A stretch of 64,000 nt of DNA from an uncultured Gammaproteobacteria bacterium. Its GTDB lineage: Bacteria; Pseudomonadota; Gammaproteobacteria; UBA9214. The stretch is from the NCBI GenBank assembly GCA_963701505.1, contig CAVOZZ010000009.1, forward strand, positions 65,770-129,769. Reading direction: 5' to 3'. Positions 4,659 through 43,310 of this stretch are shown here, one piece after another. A program made the translations under genes and the position numbers. The notes under the pieces are model-generated. The model searched no databases. It had not been told where the DNA came from and saw nothing but the letters and a program-made list of their open reading frames with translations. Position 1 is the stretch's first letter, and every line of letters starts with the position of its first letter.

Positions 4659-5118
4659 TTGCTGCTGATCTGGCTGATTGCCAACGGCACGCTGGCCACC
4701 GACACCGTGCTCACCGGCGTGGTGATCACCGCGGCCATCGCGCTGGCGTTCGCCGCCTATTCGCGCGTCTATAGCGTGATCCGCTGGTCGCCGCGGGTGA
4801 TCTACAATTACCTGCTTTACCTGGGCGTGTTTCTCCACGAACTGGTGAAGGCCAACCTTAACGTGATGCGGCTATGTGTTCAGCCGGCACATCGACATCC
4901 ACCCCGGCATCGTCGAGATCAAGACCCGCCTGGAGTCGCCCATCGGCCGCCTGGCACTGGCGAATTCCATCACGCTGACCCCGGGCACCCTGGTCGTGGA
5001 CATGCAGGGCGATTCGCTGTTCATCCACTGGATCAACGTCACCGCGACGGACCCGGTCGCGGCCACGCAGGCGATCGCCGGGCGCTTCGAGAAATACCTG
5101 AAGGTGATCTATGGCTGA
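4659..5118 (+). pseudogene. MrpE/MnhE-like antiporter subunit (MbxA-like), one frame change near 4866-4880
   Basis: ORF 4659..5129 (TTG start; N-terminal TM part ending HELVKANLNVMR) continues in ORF 4876..5118 (IDIHPGIVEIKTRLESPIGRLALANSITLTPGTLVVDM). This is typical MnhE. The stop overlaps the next start. Confidence 0.7.
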
Positions 5119-5371
5119 GATCGCCCTGAACATCGCTTTCGTGCTGATCTTCTTCAGCATCGTGTTCGGCATCATCCGTCTGGTCATCGGCCCCGACACG
5201 GTCGACCGGGTGGTCGCCGTCGACCTGCTGACCATCGTCGCCATCGCGGTGATCGCGCTGCTGGCACACATCGGCAACCGCTATATCTACCTCGATGTCG
5301 CCCTGGTCTACGGCCTGCTGAGTTTCCTCGGCGTGCTCGCGGTTGCCCGTTTCCTCGAAAAAGGCATCTAG
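5111..5371 (+). CDS. MrpF/MnhF-like subunit
   Basis: 86 aa, three TM segments. GPDTVDRVVAVDLL is the MnhF/PhaF signature region. The 8-nt start/stop overlap with the upstream gene suggests translational coupling. Confidence 0.8.
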   Translation: MAEIALNIAFVLIFFSIVFGIIRLVIGPDTVDRVVAVDLLTIVAIAVIALLAHIGNRYIYLDVALVYGLLSFLGVLAVARFLEKGI

Positions 5372-5393
5372 TCGCACAGGTAATTCACTGAAT

Positions 5394-5633
5394 ATGATCG
5401 TATTACTCACACTGCTGCTCTGTGGCGGCATCCTCATCAGCGGCCTGCTCGCCGTGCAGCTCGACAGCCTGGTCAGCGCGGTGATCAGCGCCGGCCTCGC
5501 CAGCCTGTTCGCTGCCGTGGTCTACGTGGTGCTGGCGGCGCCCGACGTTGCCATGACCGAGGCCTCGATCGGCTCGGGCCTGTCGACCATGATCTTTCTT
5601 TATGCCATCCGCAAGACGCGGGGCAAGGACTGA
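5394..5633 (+). CDS. small membrane subunit, MbhD/MrpB-N-terminal (DUF4040)-like
   Basis: ORF 5343..5633. The internal ATG at 5394 gives MIVLLTLLLCGGILISGL..., ~79 aa with 3 TM. The motif APDVAMTEASIGSGLSTMIF resembles the DUF4040 region of MnhB/MbhD. Confidence 0.6.
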   Translation: MIVLLTLLLCGGILISGLLAVQLDSLVSAVISAGLASLFAAVVYVVLAAPDVAMTEASIGSGLSTMIFLYAIRKTRGKD

Positions 5634-5636
5634 GCC

Positions 5637-5981
5637 ATGGGCGAGTTGATCGGCAGCCTGTTCCTGCTGGGTGGCTCGGTATTCCTGTTCTCGGCGGGTC
5701 TCGGCGTGCTGCGCATGCCGGACACCTATAACCGTATCCAGACCGGCACCAAGGCCACCACCCTGGGCACCATCCTGATCCTGATCGGTCTGGCCTTCCT
5801 GCACCCGGCCTGGACCTTCAAACTGATCATCCTGATCTTCTTCGTGATGCTTACCAACCCGGTGTCCTCGCACGCCCTGGCACGCGCCGCCCATGCCATC
5901 GGCACCGCAGAGACCGAGTCCACCGTGATCGACCAGCTGGAGGTCACCGCGAACGAAGACACCCGGGAGCAAGCGGAATGA
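5637..5981 (+). CDS. MrpG/MnhG-like subunit
   Basis: 114 aa. GVLRMPDTYNRIQTGTKATTLG is the classic MnhG/PhaG motif. Confidence 0.8.
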   Translation: MGELIGSLFLLGGSVFLFSAGLGVLRMPDTYNRIQTGTKATTLGTILILIGLAFLHPAWTFKLIILIFFVMLTNPVSSHALARAAHAIGTAETESTVIDQLEVTANEDTREQAE

Positions 5982-6015
5982 ACCGTGCAACGCCGCTGCC
6001 GGGTAGCGAGACCGT

Positions 6016-6756
6016 ATGATCAAGCGCATCGTCATCCTGCTGGTGCTGGTCATGCTGGCGATCATCTTTCTCGAGCTCGCGGCCAACTACAGCGAGAAAA
6101 CCTCGCTGTCACCACTGGGCCACTACTACGCCGAGCAGGGGCCATCGGAACTCGGCGCCGCCAACCTGGTGACTGCCGTGGTGGTCACCTACCGCGGCCT
6201 GGATACCCTGGGCGAGGTCACCGTGCTGTTCATCTCCGCTGCCGGTGTCGGCCTGCTGTTGCGCCGCACCCGGCGCACGGACGATGACGAAGATCTTGAA
6301 AAAGGCGACCGCGCCGAGGAAACCGCGGGCGCGCGCAAGCCCGCCAGTGAAATCGTCGAAACCGCCACCCAGCTGCTGCTACCGATGGTCATCCTGTTCG
6401 GCATCTACGTATTCCTGAACGGCCACCTGTCGCCCGGCGGCGGGTTCCAGGGCGGTGCCATCATCGCCTCCGGCACCATGTTCCTGTTGCTGGCCCTGCC
6501 CGAATCACACATCAGCCGCCTGATGATCGCCATGACCGAATCGCTCTCCGGCTTCAGCTACGTGGTCATCGGCGTGCTCGGCGTGCTGCTGGCAGGCGGT
6601 TTCCTCGACAACCGCATCATGGGCCTCGGCACCTACGGCAGTCTGTTCAGCGCCGGTGCCATACCGCTGATTTATGTGTTCGTCGGCATCAAGGTAGGCT
6701 TCGAACTCAGCGCGGTACTCGACCGCTTCCGCAAGGAGGACACGGGACCGTTATGA
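6016..6756 (+). CDS. MrpB/MnhB-like subunit (MbhE/F-like) with an acidic/basic linker
   Basis: 246 aa. Motifs NLVTAVVVTYRGLDTLGEVTVLF and GHLSPGGGFQGGAI are MnhB-domain signatures. The two halves are joined by a charged insert (RRTRRTDDDEDLEKGDRAEE). Confidence 0.75.
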   Translation: MIKRIVILLVLVMLAIIFLELAANYSEKTSLSPLGHYYAEQGPSELGAANLVTAVVVTYRGLDTLGEVTVLFISAAGVGLLLRRTRRTDDDEDLEKGDRAEETAGARKPASEIVETATQLLLPMVILFGIYVFLNGHLSPGGGFQGGAIIASGTMFLLLALPESHISRLMIAMTESLSGFSYVVIGVLGVLLAGGFLDNRIMGLGTYGSLFSAGAIPLIYVFVGIKVGFELSAVLDRFRKEDTGPL

Positions 6757-7133
6757 GTGTCCTCGCCGACATGCAGATTTCACTGATCGTGCTGTGCAGC
6801 GGCCTCGGCCTGGTCCTGATCGGGCTGTGGGGCATACTGACGCAACGCAATATCATTCGCATGATCATCGGCTTCTCGCTGCTGGATACCGGCATTCACA
6901 TGGTGATGGTATCCATCGGTTATGTCACCGGCGGCACCGCCCCCATCATCAACGACGCCGTGCCCATGGCCGAAGCCGTCAGCCGCGTCGTCGACCCGGT
7001 GCCGTCCGCGCTGGTGCTGACCGCCATCGTCATCGGCCTTGGCGTTACCGCCGTGATGCTGTCCTTCGCGGTACGCATGTACAGGGCACGCAGGACGCTG
7101 ATGATTGACGAGTTCACGGAGTCGAAATGGTAA
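6753..7133 (+). CDS. MrpC/MnhC (NuoK-like) subunit
   Basis: 126 aa, 3 TM. NIIRMIIGFSLLDTGIHMVMV is a NuoK/MnhC-type motif. Start and stop overlap both neighbours. Confidence 0.8.
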   Translation: MSVLADMQISLIVLCSGLGLVLIGLWGILTQRNIIRMIIGFSLLDTGIHMVMVSIGYVTGGTAPIINDAVPMAEAVSRVVDPVPSALVLTAIVIGLGVTAVMLSFAVRMYRARRTLMIDEFTESKW

Positions 7134-8440
7134 ACGCGCTGATGACAGAGGTACTGTTGCGGCCGCTGGGTATCTACGTGATCGCGCTCGGTGCGGGCTT
7201 CCTGATACCACTGTTTGACCGTGCACACCGCGGCTCGGCCATCCTGCTGTTCCTCGCGGCCCTCGCCGGCATGGTCGCCATTGCCGGCATCAACCTGCTG
7301 GCGATCCTGAACGGCGCAGCCGCCATCGAGATCGAAACCGCGGGCATTGCGCCGCCGTTTTCCATCAACCTGCGCTTCGGCCTGTATGAAGGCGGCTTTG
7401 TGCTTGCAGTCAACAGCATCGCGCTGCTGGGCGCCCTGCACTGGCTGCCGTCACTGCGGCAGCATGCCTCCGCGCTGTTGCTCTACCTCATCATGGTGAT
7501 GGGCATCAACGGCATGGTGATGACCCGCGACCTGTTCAACCTGTTCATTTTTATCGAGATTACCTCGATCGCCACCTACGCCCTGATCGGCATGGAGCGC
7601 AGCGGCGCGGTGCTCGCTGCCGGCTTCAAATACATCGTCGCGACCTCGGTGGCCTCGGCCTTCTTCCTGCTGGGCACGATCTTCCTGTATTACCTCACCG
7701 GTACGCTGAACATTGACGGCATGGTGGCACAGCGCGAGCTGATCAGTGGCCCGATCGGCTTCATCGCGACCCTGTTGCTGCTCACCAGCCTGCTGATCGA
7801 GCTCAAACCCTACCCCGCCAACGGCTGGGGACTGGACGTCTACGAGACGGCACCCGGCGGCATCGCCGCGCTGATCTCTGTCGGCGTCTCCGCCGGCGTG
7901 TTGTTCGCGTTGTTCAAGACACTGCCGCTGCTGGATGACTACCTGACGAGCATCGCCGTGGTCGGCGGCGCAACCTTCCTGGTCTCCAACCTGATCGGCC
8001 TGAAGCAGGACAACGCCAAACGCCTGCTCGGCTATTCCTCCATCGGCCAGATGGGCCTGCTGACACTGGCGCTGGCCGCGACGGCACAGCTTGGCAGCGA
8101 GTCACTGTTGCCGCTGATCGTGGGCGGCCTGTTCATCAATCATCTGCTGGCCAAGGCCGGGCTGTTCTGGCTGGCGGACGTGGTCAATCGCAAGACTACC
8201 CGGGACTGGTCGGTGCTCGCCGGGCGGCCCCTGCTGTTACTGGTGTTCGGTATCCTGCTGACCGCCCTGGTCGGTCTGCCACCTTTCCCCGGCTTCTGGG
8301 CCAAGTGGGTGCTGGTCATGGAACTCGCCACGGGTGGCCTGTACGGCTGGATTGCCGTGATCCTGCTGGGCTCGCTGCTGGAAGCCGCCTACCTGTTCCG
8401 CTGGTTTACGCAGGCGCTGGAGGCCCGGAAAACCGATGCC
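7127..8440 (+). CDS. MrpD/NuoM/N-type antiporter-like subunit 1 (MbxH-like); 3' end uncertain
   Basis: ORF 7127..8896. The first ~435 aa are a typical proton-conducting membrane transporter (FNLFIFIEITSIATYALI, LLGYSSIGQMG, PPFPGFWAKW). After ~8430 the reading becomes an Arg/Pro/Gly-rich tail that overlaps the next gene in another frame. The true stop has therefore been lost or shifted. Confidence 0.7.
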
Positions 8441-9818
8441 CCCGAGGCGCATCAGCCGCTGGAAACTGGCGCCCGTTGCCGTGGCCGCCCTGCTGCTGTT
8501 TGCCACCGGCTATGCCATGGCCATGCAACTCGAGAGCGACACCCTGGTCATGTTCCTGCCGCTGCTGGCCGGTGCCGCACTGTGGCTGCTGGACGGCCTG
8601 CCGGGCCGCCTGAAGAGCCTGCTGATGCTGGTGATAGTGGCCGCGGGCGGCGCCTGGCTGACGCTGGATCTCGAAGGCCTGAACCGTATCTTTGGCTTCA
8701 TCCTGGTCGGCGGCGGCGTGCTGGTGAGCCTCGCGACCCAGTACCGGGGCGATGCCCGCAAGGGCTTCTACCCGCTGCTGACCATCCTGCTGCTGTCGCT
8801 GGCGACACTGTTGTGCGCACACACCAGCCTGGCGTTCTTCTTCAGCTGGGAACTGATGACAGTGAGCTCCTACCTGCTGATCACCCTCGGCCGTAACGGC
8901 GTCAAGCCCTCACTGACCTACCTGCTGTTCTCGCTGGGTGCGGCCTATTGCATCCTTGCCGGTTTCGCCATCGCCTATGCGGCCACCGGCAGTCTTGAAC
9001 TGGCCGCACTCGGAGGCACGGGTGCGTCCACCGGCCTGGTATTCAGCCTGCTGGCGGCCGGCTTCCTCATCAAGACCGGCGCGCTCGGCGTGCATATCTG
9101 GGTGCCGGGCGCCTACGCGGAGGCCGACGACGACTTCAGCGCCTTGCTCTCCGCCGTGGTCAGCAAGGCCGCCATCTTTGGCCTGCTGCTGATTGCCGCA
9201 CAGCTCGGCGTGCGTTCCGACATCGGCCTCGACCCGGCCTACGTGCTCGGCTGGATCGGCATGCTTACCGCGACCTTCGGCGCGCTGATGGCCGTGTTCC
9301 AGGAAGACATCAAAAAACTGCTCGCCTACTCCAGCATGGGGCAGCTCGGCTATATCGTCACCGGCATCGCGCTGATGAGCCACCTCGGCTGGGTCTCCGC
9401 ACTGTACCTGACGGTGAACCACTTCCTCTTCAAGGGCATCCTGTTCCTCGCCGTCGCCGGCGTGGTACTGCGCACCAACCAGCGCTTCATGTACAAGATG
9501 GGTGGACTGATCAAGAACATGCCGTTCACCTTCGTCGCCACCATGATCGCCATCATCGCCATGTCCGGCGTGCCGCCGCTGACCGGTTTCGGCGGCAAGT
9601 GGCTGCTGTTCAACGCCATCATGGAAAAGGGCTGGTACTGGCTGGCCGCACTGGCGTTCTTCTCCAGCGCCGTCGCCTTCCTTTATATGTTCCGGCTGCT
9701 GCACACCGTCTTTCTCGGCCAGCGCAAGCTGGAGCATGCACAACTGCGCGAGGCGCCGGCGATCCTGCTGATTCCACAGTTCGTGCTGATCGGCATCATC
9801 ATGGTGTTTTCCGCCTAG
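8436..9818 (+). CDS. MrpD/NuoL-type antiporter-like subunit 2 (MbxH'-like)
   Basis: 460 aa. Motifs FFFSWELMTVSSYLLI, GVHIWVPGAYAEA, LLAYSSMGQLGYI and PPLTGFGGKW. It ends at TAG 9816-9818, which is in frame with the following ORF (see findings). Confidence 0.8.
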   Translation: MPPRRISRWKLAPVAVAALLLFATGYAMAMQLESDTLVMFLPLLAGAALWLLDGLPGRLKSLLMLVIVAAGGAWLTLDLEGLNRIFGFILVGGGVLVSLATQYRGDARKGFYPLLTILLLSLATLLCAHTSLAFFFSWELMTVSSYLLITLGRNGVKPSLTYLLFSLGAAYCILAGFAIAYAATGSLELAALGGTGASTGLVFSLLAAGFLIKTGALGVHIWVPGAYAEADDDFSALLSAVVSKAAIFGLLLIAAQLGVRSDIGLDPAYVLGWIGMLTATFGALMAVFQEDIKKLLAYSSMGQLGYIVTGIALMSHLGWVSALYLTVNHFLFKGILFLAVAGVVLRTNQRFMYKMGGLIKNMPFTFVATMIAIIAMSGVPPLTGFGGKWLLFNAIMEKGWYWLAALAFFSSAVAFLYMFRLLHTVFLGQRKLEHAQLREAPAILLIPQFVLIGIIMVFSA

Positions 9819-10286
9819 CCGAAACTGCTGCTCGAGCCGCTGTCGTCGGCCATCAGCCCGTGGCTGGCCGGCAACCTGGTGTGGGACGGCCTCTCGCTGC
9901 AGACCCATCTCGGCTACTGGAACGCACCCATGATCATGGGCGTCGTCGCCGGCGTGTGGATGGTGCCGCTGCTATTCCTGCTGCTGATGACGCTGACCCT
10001 GAAGATCCAGAAAGTCGGGCAGTTCAACATCGTGTTTGCCGCGGAGCGTCCGCATCGCCCGGAAGACACGCATTTCGCCTACAACTTCTTCGCGCACTAC
10101 GACCGGGCCCTCGGCATCCTGGTGCGGCCGCGCGCCACCGCTTTCTGGAAGTCCGTTGTCGAGTGGAGCCATTCCCTGGCCGCGTCCTTGCGGATTTTCT
10201 ATAACGGCAACGGCCAGACCTATGCACTGCATATCGTGATGTATCTGGTGGCGCTGTACCTGGTGAATGGAGGACTGCAGCTGTGA
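9819..10286 (+). CDS. either the C-terminal continuation of subunit 2 across an in-frame TAG, or a separate MbhI-like small membrane subunit (GTG 9879)
   Basis: Same frame as 8436..9818, with no further stop between 9819 and 9879. There are two or three TM segments (MIMGVVAGVWMVPLLFLLLMTL; IVMYLVALYLV). The stop overlaps the NuoH-like start. Confidence 0.55.
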   Translation, partial: PKLLLEPLSSAISPWLAGNLVWDGLSLQTHLGYWNAPMIMGVVAGVWMVPLLFLLLMTLTLKIQKVGQFNIVFAAERPHRPEDTHFAYNFFAHYDRALGILVRPRATAFWKSVVEWSHSLAASLRIFYNGNGQTYALHIVMYLVALYLVNGGLQL

Positions 10287-11209
10287 TTGCGGAATGGCTT
10301 GGCAGAATCGGTAATTTCAGCCTGACACTGCTGATCGTGGCCGTCTACGGACTGCTCGTGGGTGCCTTCATCGAACGCACCATCGCCAAGGTGCAGGGCC
10401 GCATCGGCATTCCCTACCGGCAACCGTTTATCAATATCCTGAAAACGCTGGTGAAGCGCACCGCCGTCAGTCACGGCATCATGTTCTACCTCGGGCCGGT
10501 GTTCCGCCTCGCCGGCGGCGTCGGTACGCTGGCCTTCATACCGGTGATCTACGGCAGCGACACCTTCGCGAATTTCAGCTACGCCGGCGACCTGTTCCTG
10601 GTGATCTACTTCATGTTCTTCGGCCAGCTCGGCATGGCGCTGGGCGCCGGCGAAAGCGGCCATCCCTACAGCGCCATCGGCATCGCCCGCGGCCTGTCGC
10701 AAATGACCGCCTACGAGGTGCCCTTCGCGCTGGCAGTGATCTCCATCGTCATCCAGTACGACACCCTGTCGATCACCGAGATCGTGGCCGCGCAGCAGGG
10801 CGGCTGGCAGCACTGGACGCTGTTCACCAACTGGGTGGCGACGCTGGCCGCGATGCTGGCATTTCTCGGCATGACCGGCTATTCGCCCTTCGACATCTTC
10901 CTGGCGCCGCAGGAGATACCGATTGGCCCGCCGACCGAGTTCCACAGCGCCTTCCTGTCGATGCTGCAGACCAACCGCGCCTTGTTCGGGGCCACCAAGC
11001 TGATCCTGTTCATGAACCTGTTTTTCGGCGGCGCCACCGGCTGGATCGAATTGATGATCAAAACCCTGGCAATCTACATGGTTGCAGTGGTCGTCGGTGT
11101 GGCGTTTCCGCGCTTCCGCGTCGACCAGTCGATCCGCTTCTTCTTCAAGTACCCGACACTCATCGGCATCGCGTCTATAGTGTATGTACAGATGGTAATC
11201 GCACCCTGA
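10283..11209 (+). CDS. NuoH-like membrane subunit (MbxM/MbhM/HyfC/CooK family)
   Basis: 308 aa, polytopic. Motifs IERTIAKVQGRIGIPYRQPFINILK and GESGHPYSAIGIARGLSQMTAYEVPFAL are NuoH/ND1-type. Confidence 0.85.
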   Translation: MIAEWLGRIGNFSLTLLIVAVYGLLVGAFIERTIAKVQGRIGIPYRQPFINILKTLVKRTAVSHGIMFYLGPVFRLAGGVGTLAFIPVIYGSDTFANFSYAGDLFLVIYFMFFGQLGMALGAGESGHPYSAIGIARGLSQMTAYEVPFALAVISIVIQYDTLSITEIVAAQQGGWQHWTLFTNWVATLAAMLAFLGMTGYSPFDIFLAPQEIPIGPPTEFHSAFLSMLQTNRALFGATKLILFMNLFFGGATGWIELMIKTLAIYMVAVVVGVAFPRFRVDQSIRFFFKYPTLIGIASIVYVQMVIAP

Positions 11210-11246
11210 AAACGCGGCGCGACATGCCGAGCGTGAGGACCTGACC

Positions 11247-11879
11247 ATGACAAAAGACCTGAGCACCGAAGCAACCCTGGAAAATGCCGGCTTATCCGTC
11301 GAGGACCGGCAGCTGTTCTCCAATGCGCGGCCGCGCGCCTATGAACCCTACCCGATCAAGGCGGTGGAGGATTTCGCCAACTGGGCGCGGGCGAATTCGC
11401 TGTGGATCCTGGCCTTCGGCACCGGCTGCTGCTCGATCGAGCTGCGCCCGCTGATGACGGCGCGCTTCGACGCCAGCCGCTTCGGTGTTGCCGGCCGGCC
11501 GACGCCGCGGCAGTCGTCGCTGTTCATCATCGGCGGCTACGTCTCGGTAAAAACGCTGAAGCGCATCGTGCGCAGCTACGAGCAGATGCAGGGGCCGAAA
11601 TTCATCATCGCGCTCGGCAGCTGTCCGGCCAACGGCGGCATGTACTTCGACAGCTACAACACCATCAACCAGTTCGACCTGTACCTGCCGGTGGACCTGT
11701 ACGTCACCGGCTGCATGCCGCGGCCGGAAGCGCTGCTCGGCGCCATCCTGGAACTGCAGGATGACATCAAGGCGGGCAAGTGTGACGGCGCCAACCGCTA
11801 TATCGAACACTTCGACGAATACAAGGCCAACCAGAAGAAGGTCATCAAGGACTGGAACATGCCGGATTACAACTGGTAA
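11247..11879 (+). CDS. NuoB-like [4Fe-4S] subunit (MbxJ / hydrogenase small-subunit-like)
   Basis: 210 aa. All four N2-type cluster Cys are present: GTGCCSIE (two), GSCPANGG, VTGCMPRPEAL. Confidence 0.9.
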   Translation: MTKDLSTEATLENAGLSVEDRQLFSNARPRAYEPYPIKAVEDFANWARANSLWILAFGTGCCSIELRPLMTARFDASRFGVAGRPTPRQSSLFIIGGYVSVKTLKRIVRSYEQMQGPKFIIALGSCPANGGMYFDSYNTINQFDLYLPVDLYVTGCMPRPEALLGAILELQDDIKAGKCDGANRYIEHFDEYKANQKKVIKDWNMPDYNW

Positions 11880-11914
11880 TCCCATGACACACGATCGAGC
11901 CCGGAAATACAATT

Positions 11915-12457
11915 ATGAGTGAACTGCTGGACAGACTGGTGCGCGATTTCGGTGTCACGGAGATCACCGAGCGCCTTCCGGCGATCACCACGCTGAAAGT
12001 GAGCAAGGAAAACGGCGAACGGCTGATCCGTGAACTGCGCGACCGCGAGGGCTTCACCCACCTGAATTTCATCGCCTGCACCGACTGGATCGAGGACGGC
12101 ATTTTCAGGCTGGTGTACATGCTGCACAACTACGACAGCAAACAGAACCTCGGCGTACACATCGACATCGACCGCGACAACGCCGAGATGACTTCCATCC
12201 ATACGCTGTGGGCGCAGGCCTGGACCTACCAGCGCGAACTGCGCGAGATGTACGGCATCCACTTTCCCGGCAGCCCGCGACTCGAGGAGAATTTCTGCCT
12301 CGAAGGCTGGGACGCAATGCCGCCGATGCGGCGTGATTTCGACACCGCGAAATACAGCGCGGAACGCTTCGGTCACCGCGAGGGCCGCGTCAGCCTGGTG
12401 CCGCGCGACCATATGAAGGTGCAGCTCTATCCGAATCGTGGAGGGGATAAGTCATGA
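11915..12457 (+). CDS. NuoC-like subunit (MbxK-like)
   Basis: 180 aa. Motifs FTHLNFIACTDW and TYQRELREMYGIHFPGSP are the NuoC/30 kDa family signature. Confidence 0.85.
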   Translation: MSELLDRLVRDFGVTEITERLPAITTLKVSKENGERLIRELRDREGFTHLNFIACTDWIEDGIFRLVYMLHNYDSKQNLGVHIDIDRDNAEMTSIHTLWAQAWTYQRELREMYGIHFPGSPRLEENFCLEGWDAMPPMRRDFDTAKYSAERFGHREGRVSLVPRDHMKVQLYPNRGGDKS

Positions 12458-13623
12458 CGTTATCAACCGGCCATTCCGCCGCGCTGGACTTCGCCCAGCC
12501 CGAACCGGTCGACCTGTCATCGGGTAAATACGTCAAGCTGTGGCAGGGTCCGCAGCATCCCGGCATCACCGGCAACATGTCGCTGGAACTGACACTGGAC
12601 GGCGACACCATCATCGAGTGCAAGACCCACGTCGGTTACCTGCACCGCGGCTTCGAGAAGCTGATGGAGCAGCGCAACTTTATCCAGAACTTCACCGTGG
12701 TGTGCCGCATCGCGGTTCCCGAACCGGCCTTCAACGAATACCTGTACGCGGCCGCGATCGAGGCGATCAGCGGCGTCGAGTCACCGCCGCGCGCGCAGTG
12801 GCTGCGCACGCTGAACCTCGAAATGATGCGCCTCGCCAGTTTCCTGATGTGGATCGGCGGCCAGGGCGGCGCCTTCGGCCAGTACACCGTGGCCAACTGG
12901 ACGCTCACCTACCGCGACTACGTGCTGGATCTGTTCGAGGAAATGACGGGCGCGCGCATCTACCACATGTACATGGTGCCCGGCGGCGTACGCGCCGGAC
13001 TGCCGGCTGGATTCGAGCAACGCATCCTCGAGCTGATGAACAACACCGACAAGCTGCTCGACCAGGTCGAGCGCGTGATGTACAACAACGTGGTGTTCAA
13101 GGCGCGCGCCAGGGGCCTCGGCGTGATTACCCCGGAACTGGTAGATCCGTACGGTGTGGTCGGTCCGAATGCGCGCGCCAGCGGTTTCCGCCGCGACCTG
13201 CGCAAGGACGAACCCTACCTGGTGTACGACCAGCTCGATTTCAGCGTCATCAGCGGCAGTGCCGGCGATGCCTACGAACGCGCCTGGCTGCGTTTGCAGG
13301 AAACCCGCCAGAGCATCAACCTGATCCGCCAGGTAATTGCCGGCGCACCGTCGGACGGTCCGTTCCAGGCAGACATGCCGAACTTGCTGCACTGGAAGGT
13401 GCCGGCCGGCGAGACCTACGTCAAGGCCGAGTGCACCCGCGGCGAATACGGCTACTACATGGTTACCGACGGCACCGAGATCGTGCGCCGCGTGCACGTG
13501 CGCGGTCCGAGCTACACCCATGCCATCGCATTGATGGAGCGCCTCGCGGTCGGCACCAACATCGCGGACATCGCCGGCCTGATGGTATCGCTGCACACCT
13601 ATCCGCCCGAGATTGAGAGGTAA
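12454..13623 (+). CDS. NuoD / [NiFe]-hydrogenase large-subunit-like catalytic subunit lacking the NiFe Cys ligand pairs (MbxL/Ehr-like)
   Basis: 389 aa. GPQHPGITGNMSLEL and GYLHRGFEKL are NuoD/group-4 motifs. The N-terminal RxCGxC position reads VVCRIAVPEP. The C-terminal DPCxxC position reads SLHTYPPEIER, with no Cys. Confidence 0.9.
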   Translation: MTLSTGHSAALDFAQPEPVDLSSGKYVKLWQGPQHPGITGNMSLELTLDGDTIIECKTHVGYLHRGFEKLMEQRNFIQNFTVVCRIAVPEPAFNEYLYAAAIEAISGVESPPRAQWLRTLNLEMMRLASFLMWIGGQGGAFGQYTVANWTLTYRDYVLDLFEEMTGARIYHMYMVPGGVRAGLPAGFEQRILELMNNTDKLLDQVERVMYNNVVFKARARGLGVITPELVDPYGVVGPNARASGFRRDLRKDEPYLVYDQLDFSVISGSAGDAYERAWLRLQETRQSINLIRQVIAGAPSDGPFQADMPNLLHWKVPAGETYVKAECTRGEYGYYMVTDGTEIVRRVHVRGPSYTHAIALMERLAVGTNIADIAGLMVSLHTYPPEIER

Positions 13624-13635
13624 GCAGTAAATATC

Positions 13636-15444
13636 ATGAGCCTGAAAGACCTGCTATCCCCGTTCTATGTCTGGCAACGCGCCTTCGAGAAACCCTATAC
13701 CTCCATCCGTCCGATCCAGGAGCGCCCCGGTGCGGCCGCCTATCGCGGCTTTCACATCAATATCAGCGAGGAATGCATCGGCTGCGGCACCTGCCACAAG
13801 ATCTGCCAGAACGACGCGATCGATATGGTCCGGGTCGAGGCATACGAAGGTCGCAGTGGCGACAGTGGCTTGCGCCCGCGCTTCGACTATGGCCGCTGCT
13901 GCTGGTGCGCCCTGTGCGTCGATATGTGTCCCGCCGGTTCCCTGCGCATGAGCAACGAGTACACCTGGATCACCAGCGACCCAACCACGTATCACTTCAC
14001 CGCGGGCGTTGAACACACCACCTGGCAGGAGAATCCGCTGGGCTACCGCCGCGCGGAAGGCTACCATCTCTACCCGCCCAAACGCATCGACATGGAGATG
14101 CGGCCACCGGCAGAGAGCGTACAGTCATTCGATGAAGTGGTGCTGGGCTACAGCGAGTCACAGGCGCTGCTGGAAGCCGACCGCTGCATCGAATGCGGCA
14201 TCTGCGTCGCCACCTGCCCGGCGCACATGGACGTTCCCGACTACATCCGCAGCATCCGTGACCGCGATTACGAGAAGGGTCTGCAGCTGATGTACCGCAC
14301 CAATCCCTTCCCCGCCACCTGCGGGCGCATCTGCACGCGCCGCTGCGAGTCGGTGTGCCCGGTTGGCATCCAGGGAGAACCGATCGCCATTCGCTGGCTG
14401 AAACGTTTCATCGTCGACCAGATCCAGCCGCAGGACTATGCGCGCATACTTGCCGACCAGAGCGGACACAGTGGCCGCCGCATCGCCATCATCGGCGCCG
14501 GCCCCGGTGGTCTGAGTGCCGCCTATTACCTGCGCAAGCAAGGCCACGCGGTGACGGTGTTCGAGGCGCAGGAAAGCGCCGGCGGCATGCTGCGCTACGG
14601 CGTGCCCAGCTACCGCCTGCCGGACGCGGATCTCGACAAGGACATCAATTACATCGTGTCACTCGGTGTGGACATCCGCTACAACACACGTGTCGGCAAG
14701 GACATCGCCTTCGAAGAACTGCTGCAGGACTACGATGCCCTGTTCCTGTCCACCGGCCTGTCGGTGCCCTCCAGCATGCGCATCCAGGGCGAGGACCATC
14801 CGCGCGTGCTGTCCGGCCTGCAGGTGCTTGCCGATGTCGCCAGCGGTCGCGACCCGGGCATCGGCCACAAGGTTGCCGTCATCGGCGGCGGCAACGTTGC
14901 CATGGACGCAGCACGGGTCGCGCGGCGTCTCGGCGCCGCTGTCACCATCCTCTACCGCCGTCGGATCGCCGACATGCCGGCGGATGTCGAGGAAATAAAC
15001 GAGTCACAGGAAGAAGGCTGCCGCATCGTCACCCAGGCGATCCCGGTTGAAATCATTGCGGCGGACAGCCCGCAACAGGTTGCGATCAAGTGGGGAGAAG
15101 CCGAAATGGTGCAGGACCCGAAAGGCGGCCGGCCACGCCCGGTGCTGCAGGAAGACAGGATGCATGTAGAAACTTACGACTGCATCGTCTCGGCCATCGG
15201 CCAAAGCAGCGACCTCGACTTCCTGTCAAAGGAGATACAGGACCAGCTGGCCATCGAGTGGGGCAAATTCACGCCGGGTGAATACCAGCACACATCGCTG
15301 GCGAAGATTTTCGCCGGCGGTGACGTCGCCAATCGCACCGCCGATGCCATCAGCGCCATCGAGGACGGCCATCATGCCGCGCGCGGCATCGACCGGTTCC
15401 TGAACCCGGATACCCGGATGCATACAGACGAGGAGGTGAACTGA
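13636..15444 (+). CDS. fusion protein: NuoI/MbxN-like 2x[4Fe-4S] ferredoxin domain + GltD/SudA/NfnB-like FAD/NAD(P)H oxidoreductase
   Basis: 602 aa. The N-terminus has CIGCGTCHKICQ and CCWCALCVDMCP. The GltD-type Fe-S region follows (CIECGICVATCP...CGRICTRRCESVCP). Then come two Rossmann motifs, IAIIGAGPGGLSAAYYL and VAVIGGGNVAMDAAR, and GGDV near the C-terminus. Confidence 0.85.
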   Translation: MSLKDLLSPFYVWQRAFEKPYTSIRPIQERPGAAAYRGFHINISEECIGCGTCHKICQNDAIDMVRVEAYEGRSGDSGLRPRFDYGRCCWCALCVDMCPAGSLRMSNEYTWITSDPTTYHFTAGVEHTTWQENPLGYRRAEGYHLYPPKRIDMEMRPPAESVQSFDEVVLGYSESQALLEADRCIECGICVATCPAHMDVPDYIRSIRDRDYEKGLQLMYRTNPFPATCGRICTRRCESVCPVGIQGEPIAIRWLKRFIVDQIQPQDYARILADQSGHSGRRIAIIGAGPGGLSAAYYLRKQGHAVTVFEAQESAGGMLRYGVPSYRLPDADLDKDINYIVSLGVDIRYNTRVGKDIAFEELLQDYDALFLSTGLSVPSSMRIQGEDHPRVLSGLQVLADVASGRDPGIGHKVAVIGGGNVAMDAARVARRLGAAVTILYRRRIADMPADVEEINESQEEGCRIVTQAIPVEIIAADSPQQVAIKWGEAEMVQDPKGGRPRPVLQEDRMHVETYDCIVSAIGQSSDLDFLSKEIQDQLAIEWGKFTPGEYQHTSLAKIFAGGDVANRTADAISAIEDGHHAARGIDRFLNPDTRMHTDEEVN

Positions 15445-15445
15445 C

Positions 15446-15892
15446 ATGAACAGCGTGGATGAAATACTCGACTATGCCATTGACCAGGAACAGCAGGCCG
15501 CTGACTTCTACGCGGAGCTGGCCGGCCGCGCCGAAAAGGCCGGCATGAAAGATATCCTGCTGGATTTCTCCGCAGAGGAACAAAGCCACAAGCAACGACT
15601 GCTGGCGGTAAAGGCCGGTGACCACGAGCTGACACCGGAACAGCAGGTGCTGGACCTGAAGATCTCCGACTACCTTGTCGAGGTCGGCGCCAGCGCCAAC
15701 ATCTCCTACCAGGACGCCCTGATCGTCGCCATGAAACGTGAACGTGCTGCCTTCCAGCTGTACAGCGACATGGCCGCAAAGGTTCCGGAGGGCCATCTGA
15801 AGGAAGTCCTGCAGGGCCTCGCCAAGGAAGAGGCCAAGCACAAGCTGTTCTTTGAATCCGAGTACGACGAGCGCGTCTTGATGGATAACTAG
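15446..15892 (+). CDS. rubrerythrin/ferritin-like diiron four-helix-bundle protein (no rubredoxin domain)
   Basis: 148 aa. Two E-x-x-H motifs (EEQSH, EEAKH), each preceded by a helix carrying a conserved Glu (ADFYAEL, MKRERAAF). The start lies 1 nt after the upstream stop. Confidence 0.7.
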   Translation: MNSVDEILDYAIDQEQQAADFYAELAGRAEKAGMKDILLDFSAEEQSHKQRLLAVKAGDHELTPEQQVLDLKISDYLVEVGASANISYQDALIVAMKRERAAFQLYSDMAAKVPEGHLKEVLQGLAKEEAKHKLFFESEYDERVLMDN

Positions 15893-41891: not shown

Positions 41892-43310
41892 TTACTTGTG
41901 CGCAACGTCGATCTTGTCAACGGTATCAAATTCGAACTTGATCTCTTTCCAGGTATCCATGGCAGCAGCCAGTTCCGGGCTGTGCTTGGCAGCAGCGGTA
42001 AGAATGTCCTTGCCCTCTTTCTCCAGCTCACGGCCCTGGTTGCGTGCTTCAACGCAGGCTTCAACAGCCACCCGGTTGGCAGCAGCACCAGCGGCGTTGC
42101 CCCATGGGTGACCCAGCGTACCGCCACCAAACTGCAGGCAGGAATCGTCGCCAAAGATGCTGACCAGTGCCGGCATGTGCCAGACATGGATACCACCGGA
42201 AGCAACCGGAATCACACCCGGCATGGCACCCCAGTCCTGATCGAAGAAGATACCGCGGGTACGGTCTTCCTTGATGTAGGAATCGCGCATGATGTCAATC
42301 CAGCCCAGCGTCGCATCACGGTCGCCTTCCAGCTTGCCGACCACGGTACCGGAGTGCAGGTGATCACCACCTGACAGACGCAGACACTTGGCCAGTACGC
42401 GGAAGTGGATACCGTGGTGCGGGTTGCGGTCGAGCACGGCGTGCATGGCACGGTGGATGTGCAGCAAGATGCCGTTGTTCTGACACCATTGTGCCAGTTG
42501 GGTATTTGCAGAGAAGCCGCCGGTCAGGAAGTCATGCATGATGATCGGTGCGCCAATTTCCTTGGCGTACTCGGCACGGCGCATCATTTCGTCAGCCGTC
42601 GGCGCGGTCACATTCAGGTAGTGGCCCTTGCGCTCGCCGGTCTCGGCTTCAGCCTTGTGAATGGCTTCCATGACGAAGTCGAAACGGTGACGCCAGCGCA
42701 TGAAAGGCTGTGAGTTGACGTTCTCGTCATCCTTGGTGAAGTCCAGACCACCGCGCAGACCTTCGTAGCAGGCACGGCCATAGTTCTTCGCAGACAGACC
42801 CAGCTTCGGCTTGATGGTGCAGCCCAGCAGCGGACGACCATACTTGTTGAGGATGTCACGTTCAACCTGGATACCCTGAGGTGGCCCGTTACAGGTCATC
42901 ACGTAGGCAACCGGGAAGCGGATGTCTTCCAGGCGCAGGGCGCGCAGCGCCTTGAAGCCGAAGACGTTACCGACCAGCGAGGTCAGTACGTTAACAACAG
43001 AACCCTCCTCGAACAGATCGATCGGGTAGGCGACGAAGGCATAGAAGCAGGTGTCATCACCCGGGACGTCCTCGATCGCGTAGGCACGGCCCTTGTAATA
43101 GTCCAGGTCGGTCAGCAGGTCGGTCCAGACCGTGGTCCAGGTACCGGTTGAAGACTCGGCAGCAACCGCGGCTGCAACTTCTTCACGCGGCACACCCGCC
43201 TGCGGGGTAATCTTGAAACACGCCAGAAGATCGGTATCTTTTGGTGTGTAGTCCGGCATCCAGTACGTTTCGCGGTATTCTTTTACGCCTGCATCGTATT
43301 TCTTGGCCAT
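41892..43310 (-). CDS. cbbL: RuBisCO form I (IA, green-type) large subunit
   Basis: Intact 472 aa. Motifs [19 protein letters not shown] (carbamylated-Lys loop), [29 protein letters not shown]. Confidence 0.97.

Follow-up and report, generated by a model that had tools for sequence, protein, structure and literature searches.

Conserved pocket cysteines in the L subunit of an NADPH-flavoprotein-fused bacterial complex of the Mrp-Mbx/MBS type

A 64,000-nucleotide stretch of contig CAVOZZ010000009.1 (hereafter the window; assembly GCA_963701505.1, positions 65,770 to 129,769 of the forward strand), from an uncultured gammaproteobacterium of the UBA9214 lineage, carries the gene for the L subunit of a bacterial complex of the Mrp-Mbx/MBS type. 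The complex belongs to the family in which the N subunit is fused to a GltD-type flavoprotein, and this identity is firm. All four cysteine ligands of the NiFe site of hydrogenases are gone from the protein, and two of its remaining cysteines, Cys84 and Cys327, are conserved clade-specific residues and not vestigial NiFe ligands. We hold with moderate confidence that the pocket is a fully de-metallated former NiFe site at which no quinone site has been gained. As a working model, to which we give about an even chance, the protein would be part of an NADPH-flavoprotein-fused, ion-translocating oxidoreductase with sulfane-sulfur chemistry in its pocket.

The gene and its protein are as follows.

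12454..13623, + strand: L subunit (MbsL/MbxL-type, NuoD fold), 389 aa; Pfam PF00346 (Complex1_49kDa), E=7e-67; 311 bits to 6U8Y_L; AlphaFold2 (AF2) pLDDT 88.4

The strings quoted in an earlier note on this DNA, made from the letters alone, are all present in the translation of this open reading frame (ORF): VVCRIAVPEPAFNEY spans residues 82-96, AECTRGEYGYY spans residues 325-335, and the C-terminus reads SLHTYPPEIER. The start codon overlaps the stop of the upstream NuoC-type K gene (ATGA), with a GAGGGG motif preceding it. The ORF is taken to be a real gene because of the Pfam match, the full-length match to MbsL and a dN/dS of 0.087 against the closest relative. The protein has three cysteines only, at positions 56, 84 and 327.

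Among solved structures, the top sequence match was MbsL of the Pyrococcus furiosus sulfane reductase MBS, covering residues 27-389; weaker matches were to complex I NuoD homologues (about 225 bits), MbhL (134 bits) and HycE (93 bits). The AF2 model, built from an 80-sequence alignment, was compared by Foldseek, which also ranked 6u8y_L first (TM 0.89/0.93, rmsd 2.5 Å). This closest homology to MbsL, combined with an operon that encodes a Mrp-type membrane module and NuoH/B/C/D/I homologues, is what identifies the gene. By gene content alone, the full Mrp set, NuoC and the NuoI-GltD fusion agree with Mbx/MBS. The earlier note had filed the protein with Mbx/MBS and not with the H2-evolving enzymes, a placement borne out by the best sequence and fold matches, the Mrp operon and the lack of quinone-site residues. 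Two other assignments were considered and rejected. A group 4 [NiFe] hydrogenase large subunit does not agree with Ala, Glu and Tyr at positions 87, 90 and 383, nor with a C-terminal motif devoid of cysteine. A quinone-reducing NuoD does not agree with Thr39, Val88 and Ala140 at the positions equivalent to His38, Tyr87 and Asp139, nor with the score for TIGR01962 NuoD (311, below the cut-off of 459); the generic NCBIfam model NF004739 'NuoD' was passed (398, cut-off 360).

Residues were assigned from alignment with solved structures and from a MAFFT alignment with 150 cluster representatives. For conservation, a database search returned >5,600 relatives, of which the best 120 clusters (at least 66% identity) form the close set; in species-representative genomes, a scan confirmed 591 stretches with relatives, and counts of loci refer to the best 80 (61-94% identity), whose sources are sulfur-oxidising Gammaproteobacteria, Magnetococcales, Spirochaetota, Cloacimonadota and Calditrichota. 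The positions discussed below are the following.

12619..12621, + strand: Cys56, third and last cysteine, clade-specific; Cys in 98% of close clusters
12670..12672, + strand: Gln73, Arg in nearly all relatives; the sole L position separating lineages with a tandem-Cys J subunit from those with a single-Cys J subunit
12703..12705, + strand: Cys84 codon (TGC), before invariant Arg85, not a ligand position; 120/120 close clusters, 80/80 loci
12712..12723, + strand: Ala87-Val88-Pro89-Glu90; the first and second NiFe ligands were formerly at 87 and 90, and Val88 is the counterpart of Nqo4 Tyr87
13432..13440, + strand: Cys327-Thr328-Arg329 of the ECTRGE hairpin; Arg329 is the Arg of the EAPRG motif
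13600..13602, + strand: Tyr383 at the position of MbsL Cys385 (third NiFe ligand); Tyr in the window's clade

At the first motif, hydrogenases read E-R-I-C-G-I-C-S-x-x-H (ERICGICSHIH), NuoD reads T-D-R-L-D-Y and MbsL reads L-R-I-C-V-P-E-P. The window L reads C84-R85-I86-A87-V88-P89-E90-P91, matched to hydrogenase E-R-I-C-G-I-C, such that MbsL Cys85 aligns with Ala87. The earlier note had counted one cysteine as retained at the first NiFe motif. The alignment does not bear this out: Cys84 stands where hydrogenases and NuoD have Glu or Asp, one residue ahead of the invariant Arg, and ligand positions 87 and 90 are not Cys. Its two other statements on the pocket hold, namely that the C-terminal motif has no cysteine, the MbsL Cys385 position being Tyr383, and that the EAPRGE-type loop carries an unusual one, Cys327, which takes the place of Ala in E-A-P-R-G.

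In the AF2 model, Cys84 starts a coil (84-91) that follows helix 77-83, and Cys327 is the final residue of strand 319-327, with Thr328-Arg329 forming the hairpin turn. Cys327 thus lies two residues before Arg329, the Arg of EAPRG, which we equate with the arginine positioned above the hydrogenase NiFe site. In hydrogenases an arginine hangs directly over Ni and Fe (PMC10430524). The Yarrowia lipolytica counterparts of Arg65 and Arg85, R121 and R141, lie in the second coordination sphere around cluster N2 (PMC8042128; PMC3829151), and the dimethylated Arg of NDUFS2 is that of the HRG motif, Arg65 in the window L (PMC3829151). The Tyr at the Val88 position sits near the tandem cysteines of the NuoB-type subunit (PMC8042128). 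By homology, Cys84 would adjoin an Arg of the proximal cluster's second coordination sphere, and closeness of both Cys84 and Cys327 to the cluster or the cavity is plausible.

Both cysteines were conserved among orthologues, as the earlier note would require, and its quinone-site alternative fared poorly, since the Tyr/His pair of NuoD is not conserved in the window L (Val88, Thr39). Cys84 is invariant across five phyla at identities of at least 61%. Cys327 is present in 115 of the 120 close clusters (96%); at the loci it is Cys in Gammaproteobacteria and most spirochaetes, and Ser, Ala or Thr in Cloacimonadota and Calditrichota. Relatives carry either Ala or Cys at position 87, Cys accounting for 11% of the close clusters, and either Tyr or Cys at position 383. 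A Bacteroidota sister set with the same operon (about 51% identity) has Cys83 in 75%, Cys87 and Cys383 in 100%, Ser327, and Ala or Ser at position 56.

A quick maximum-likelihood tree with SH-aLRT supports recovered the bacterial GltD-fused family as a single clade (SH-aLRT 100), sister to archaeal MbsL. Within the family tree, changes between Cys and non-Cys numbered one at position 84, four at 87, four at 383 and eight at 56; position 327 is taken up below. The single change at position 84 is that of the Bacteroidota, with Cys83 instead. The Cys87 and Cys383 pair is retained in MbsL, all archaeal outgroups, Bacteroidota and Calditrichota, while the window L has Ala87 and Tyr383 in place of these vestigial first and third NiFe cysteines (MbsL Cys85/Cys385). 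Judged from these distributions, the ancestral Cys87/Cys383 pair has been swapped for Cys84/Cys327 in the window's clade, and the state of the window (Cys56, Cys84, Ala87, Cys327, Tyr383) is the derived end of a series replacing the vestigial pair. Cys327 and Cys383 occur together in 0 of 86 sequences, a count that comprises only 2-5 independent contrasts and leaves a sign test without power.

The partner subunit bears on the same pocket through the proximal cluster.

11247..11879, + strand: J subunit (NuoB/MbsJ-type), carries the proximal [4Fe-4S] cluster; 6U8Y_J, 203 bits, best match in the Protein Data Bank (PDB)
11427..11432, + strand: tandem Cys61-Cys62 (TGC TGC) in FGTGCCSIE; relatives read FGTGCGAIE

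With cluster cysteines at 61, 126 and 156 and the extra Cys62, the window J has four candidate ligands, which is the complex I pattern and not the three-Cys proximal cluster of MBS/Mbx. At this motif MbsJ reads FCTGCGGIE, a classical Mbx locus (L094) reads YCTGCGAVE, and the Bacteroidota locus L093 reads FGTGCG[AS]xE with a single Cys; the last form was also found in all but the closest relative among 76 related loci. The motif was readable in 117 of the best 120 J clusters. Of these, 100 have the single Cys and 17 the tandem Cys, the latter all at least 79% identical to the window and confined to one gammaproteobacterial subclade, in which the doublet goes together with J Val99, J Asp173 and the loss of Arg73 in L.

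In paired loci, L residue 73 was Gln, His or Gly at 6/6 tandem-Cys loci and Arg at 18/18 single-Cys gammaproteobacterial loci, the one L position that separated the two groups; Arg73 was also found in 119 of 120 Bacteroidota-clade sequences. The L sequences without Arg73 form a single clade of 28 (support 97), so that the loss of Arg73 is a single event followed by relaxed variation. A strict coupling between L Arg73 and the J motif was rejected, given this single event and a distant locus (L058) that combines a single Cys with Gln73. The quinone-site positions of L did not differ between the tandem-Cys and single-Cys groups, and no position of the NuoH-type subunit separated the two lineages. 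Because of the J tandem Cys-Cys and the loss of L Arg73, the fourth iron in the window's subclade is probably cysteine-ligated. No earlier description of the tandem-Cys/Gln73 subclade was found in the literature, and nothing usable was found there on this complex in sulfur-oxidising Gammaproteobacteria or on Y. lipolytica K407.

Comparison with known systems places the complex closest to MBS. MbsL and the window L share the segment R-I-x-V-P-E-P and, at the C-terminus, PP[DE]I[DE]R; both systems have a Mrp-type membrane arm with two antiporter-like units and neither a NiFe nor a quinone site, and the family's J has three cluster cysteines like MbsJ (the 100 single-Cys clusters). The window differs in having Ala87/Tyr383 for MbsL Cys85/Cys385 together with its own Cys84, Cys327 and Cys56, in an N subunit fused to an NADPH flavoprotein where MbsN is a plain ferredoxin-type subunit, in G58xxC61C62 where MbsJ has C25xxC28G, and in its host, a mesophilic sulfur-oxidising gammaproteobacterium. 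In MBS, which couples ferredoxin-dependent reduction of polysulfide to ion translocation, catalysis is assigned to the non-cysteinyl open iron of the three-Cys proximal cluster (MbsJ C28, C93 and C123); the pocket pair Cys85/Cys385 lies about 12 Å from the cluster, and the C25A and C85A/C385A mutants keep activity (PMC7684303).

An 'mbx-like' operon with a gltD-related N subunit and a terminal rubrerythrin was described by Degli Esposti in 2015 from Thermotoga and from proteobacteria including Magnetococcus (PMC4758237). The window shares this architecture and is a member of that group, with Magnetococcales in the same clade. However, the mbx-like NuoD homologues were described as having vestigial first and third NiFe cysteines, neither of which is present in the window, and the tandem Cys of NuoB was dated to Fpo and complex I (PMC4758237), whereas the window doublet arose separately within the mbx-like family. 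With complex I (NuoD/Nqo4/NDUFS2), the window L shares the fold (TM about 0.86), the loss of all four NiFe cysteines, and the conserved HRGxE motif, Arg65 and Arg85, and the window J shares the tandem Cys-Cys of NuoB/Nqo6/NDUFS7. It differs from complex I in lacking His38, Tyr87 and Asp139, in its Mrp-type membrane arm without a NuoEFG module, and in L being nearer to MBS than to any NuoD. With group 4 hydrogenases (MbhL, HycE, EchE), it has in common ancestry, fold, the EAPRG-loop Arg and the C-terminal Arg, but lacks the four metal-ligand cysteines and matches MbhL and HycE much less well.

The L and J genes lie within a co-directional operon (4659-15892) of Mrp-type membrane genes, NuoH/B/C/D types, a NuoI-GltD fusion and a rubrerythrin-like gene. 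Its remaining members are as follows.

4659..11209, + strand: membrane module comprising MnhE, MrpF, MbhD, MnhG, MbhE/MnhB, MnhC, antiporter-like subunit(s) and a NuoH/MbsM-type anchor
11915..12457, + strand: K subunit (NuoC-type); PF00329, E=7e-25; stop overlaps L start
13636..15444, + strand: N subunit, a NuoI-type 2x[4Fe-4S] domain fused to a GltD/NfnB-like NADPH flavoprotein
15446..15892, + strand: rubrerythrin-like diiron protein, last operon gene; in 25/80 related loci

The order in the window, with the fusion directly after L and then the rubrerythrin, is that of the GltD-fused mbx-like family, and the NuoI-GltD fusion lies downstream of L at 80/80 related loci. PFOR and ppsA adjoin the window's operon. 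In seven spirochaete loci (L018, L024, L029, L035, L040, L045 and L073), a second GltD/NfnB-like gene lies about 1 kb downstream of N, with a DHODB_Fe-S_bind (NfnA-like) gene before it, which makes NfnAB a recurring neighbour of the operon in spirochaetes. At the Bacteroidota locus L093, the gene after the NuoI-GltD fusion (12710-13693) is DHO_dh (dihydroorotate/dihydropyrimidine dehydrogenase-like), and the two form a DPD-like pair.

The host genome (2.55 Mb, 83% complete) has a separate canonical NuoD fragment, RnfC, DsrA and RuBisCO, a gene set that fits a sulfur-oxidising autotroph. The RuBisCO large subunit is encoded in the window itself (41892-43310, - strand; PF00016, 461 bits), and an ORF upstream of the window on the same contig (C9:13831-14115) may be a [NiFe] hydrogenase large subunit. 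The canonical NuoD fragment lies at the end of another contig (C11, about 312292-312947) and reads in three frames, which suggests assembly indel errors. Within the operon, the antiporter-like (MbsH/H'-type) gene at 7127-10286, a single ORF of 1056-1152 aa in relatives, is split. Against the closest relative (L001), one extra base (+1) near 8446 shifts its frame, and at 9816-9818 TAC has become TAG. Since dN/dS against L001 is 0.02-0.14 for all operon genes, with the split pieces (0.10-0.14) resembling intact genes, these lesions are either recent or assembly errors.

Beyond the identity and anatomy established above, we infer a substrate and a direction for the working model as follows. The clusters of the N subunit would relay electrons between the NADP(H) of the GltD-type domain and the proximal cluster of J. 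The L/J/M pocket would be the site at which a small sulfur compound, polysulfide or persulfide, is reduced or, in this autotrophic sulfur oxidiser, oxidised; the reaction would be coupled to ion translocation, either driving it or being driven by it. Most family members would carry out the chemistry on the open iron of their three-Cys cluster, like MBS, and use the L cysteines as helpers (sulfane handling, tuning or stability) rather than as essential catalysts. In the window's subclade, the cluster site may be hemilabile, as proposed for complex I N2, or may rely more on the L thiols. Sulfane-sulfur chemistry with an NADP(H) partner is favoured because of the three-Cys J motif of the family, its homology to MBS and the induction of Thermotoga maritima mbx by S0 (PMC9431562); the host's DsrA, RuBisCO, Rnf and separate NuoD are in keeping with it. 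An assisting rather than catalytic role for the L cysteines is favoured because of the MBS precedent and the Ser/Ala substitutions at position 327, although Cys84 and Cys327 appear conserved enough to matter.

Several observations weigh against this model. The reduction of polysulfide by NADPH has little driving force, as estimated from standard potentials. No recurrent sulfur genes were found in 102 downstream ORFs of 51 loci, where NfnAB-like pairs and rubrerythrin were the only repeated partners, and such neighbours point to NADPH/ferredoxin balancing. Some family members have Cys84 as their lone pocket cysteine, and the state of position 327 changes five times on the tree. The Cys-Cys and Arg73 changes count as one evolutionary event, and Gln73 occurs together with a single Cys at L058. 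The pocket cysteines of MBS are dispensable in vitro, so that conservation need not mean catalysis (PMC7684303).

Possible, though well short of an even chance, is that the cysteines are structural or redox-tuning and the complex is an ion-coupled ferredoxin:NADP+ (or NADPH:ferredoxin) oxidoreductase with the pocket as a coupling element only. A ferredoxin:NADP+ function has been proposed before (Degli Esposti 2015, PMC4758237; Mesotoga model, bioRxiv 10.1101/322537). Consistent with it are the NfnAB-like genes that follow the operon in 5-7 spirochaete loci, the PFOR and ppsA genes adjoining the operon in the window, and the dispensable MBS cysteines, as well as the invariance of the whole VCRI[AC]VPEP segment, by which Cys84 is no more conserved than its neighbours. 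Against this, the known relatives MBH, MBS and complex I couple via a small-molecule reaction at the L/J/M pocket, a path from ferredoxin to NADP+ would skip the J cluster, the host already has Rnf, and the family retains the unusual three-Cys cluster that marks catalysis in MBS. The strict form of the earlier note's proposal, in which Cys84 and Cys327, and not the cluster, form a catalytic thiol/disulfide or persulfide site, is unlikely in our judgement. It would account for two conserved cysteines in a protein with three and for the tandem-Cys subclade keeping both while the open iron of its cluster is probably closed; the mutual exclusion of Cys327 and Cys383 would suggest one thiol kept near the old third-ligand position, but the test on independent pairs has no power. 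Moreover, Cys327 is Ser, Ala or Thr in Cloacimonadota, Calditrichota and Bacteroidota with the same operon, some members manage with Cys84 alone, and the homologous MBS pair is not catalytic (PMC7684303).

The window's subclade might also be an NADPH:quinone reductase resembling complex I, with the tandem Cys-Cys as its N2 signature, which we consider very improbable. Its hosts are ubiquinone-containing Gammaproteobacteria, and the generic NuoD model was passed; elsewhere, the tandem motif is associated with reactivity towards quinones or phenazines (PMC4758237). However, Thr39, Val88 and Ala140 occupy the quinone positions in tandem-Cys and single-Cys lineages alike, the TIGR01962 score is below cut-off, the host has its own canonical NuoD, and the NuoH-type subunit has no position that separates the two lineages. 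Decay of the operon in this organism, leaving a pocket without current function, is improbable too: the frameshift and the stop codon in the antiporter gene, a single ORF in the closest relative, would fit such decay, but the low dN/dS of all operon genes, split pieces included, does not, the several frames of the canonical NuoD on the other contig suggest assembly indel errors, and L, J, K and N are intact.

A more speculative extension of the sulfane-sulfur model, which we regard as a long shot, treats the subclade to which the window belongs as a natural intermediate: its catalytic three-Cys cluster of the MBS type would have become complex-I-like, and in autotrophs that oxidise sulfur the complex would run backwards as an ion-gradient-driven sulfide/polysulfide:NADP+ oxidoreductase. 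The point mutations responsible, J Gly62Cys/Ala63Ser and the loss of L Arg73, would have arisen independently of the Fpo/complex I lineage and before any quinone-site residues were acquired. Running in this direction, the complex would be a far cheaper source of NADPH for fixing CO2 than reverse electron transport via quinone and complex I, and Cys84 and Cys327 would handle sulfane sulfur.

The family, common in sulfur oxidisers, spirochaetes, Cloacimonadota and Bacteroidota, stands between hydrogenases, sulfur-reducing MBS and complex I. Its bacterial branch is defined here by pocket residues, with Cys84 invariant and the Cys87/Cys383 pair giving way to Cys84/Cys327, and it includes a subclade in which the open iron site is apparently closed by a second, adjacent cysteine. 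The single-Cys and tandem-Cys enzymes, about 85% identical, form a matched natural pair that bears on whether the three-Cys cluster is an MBS-type catalytic site and on the role of the N2 tandem cysteines.

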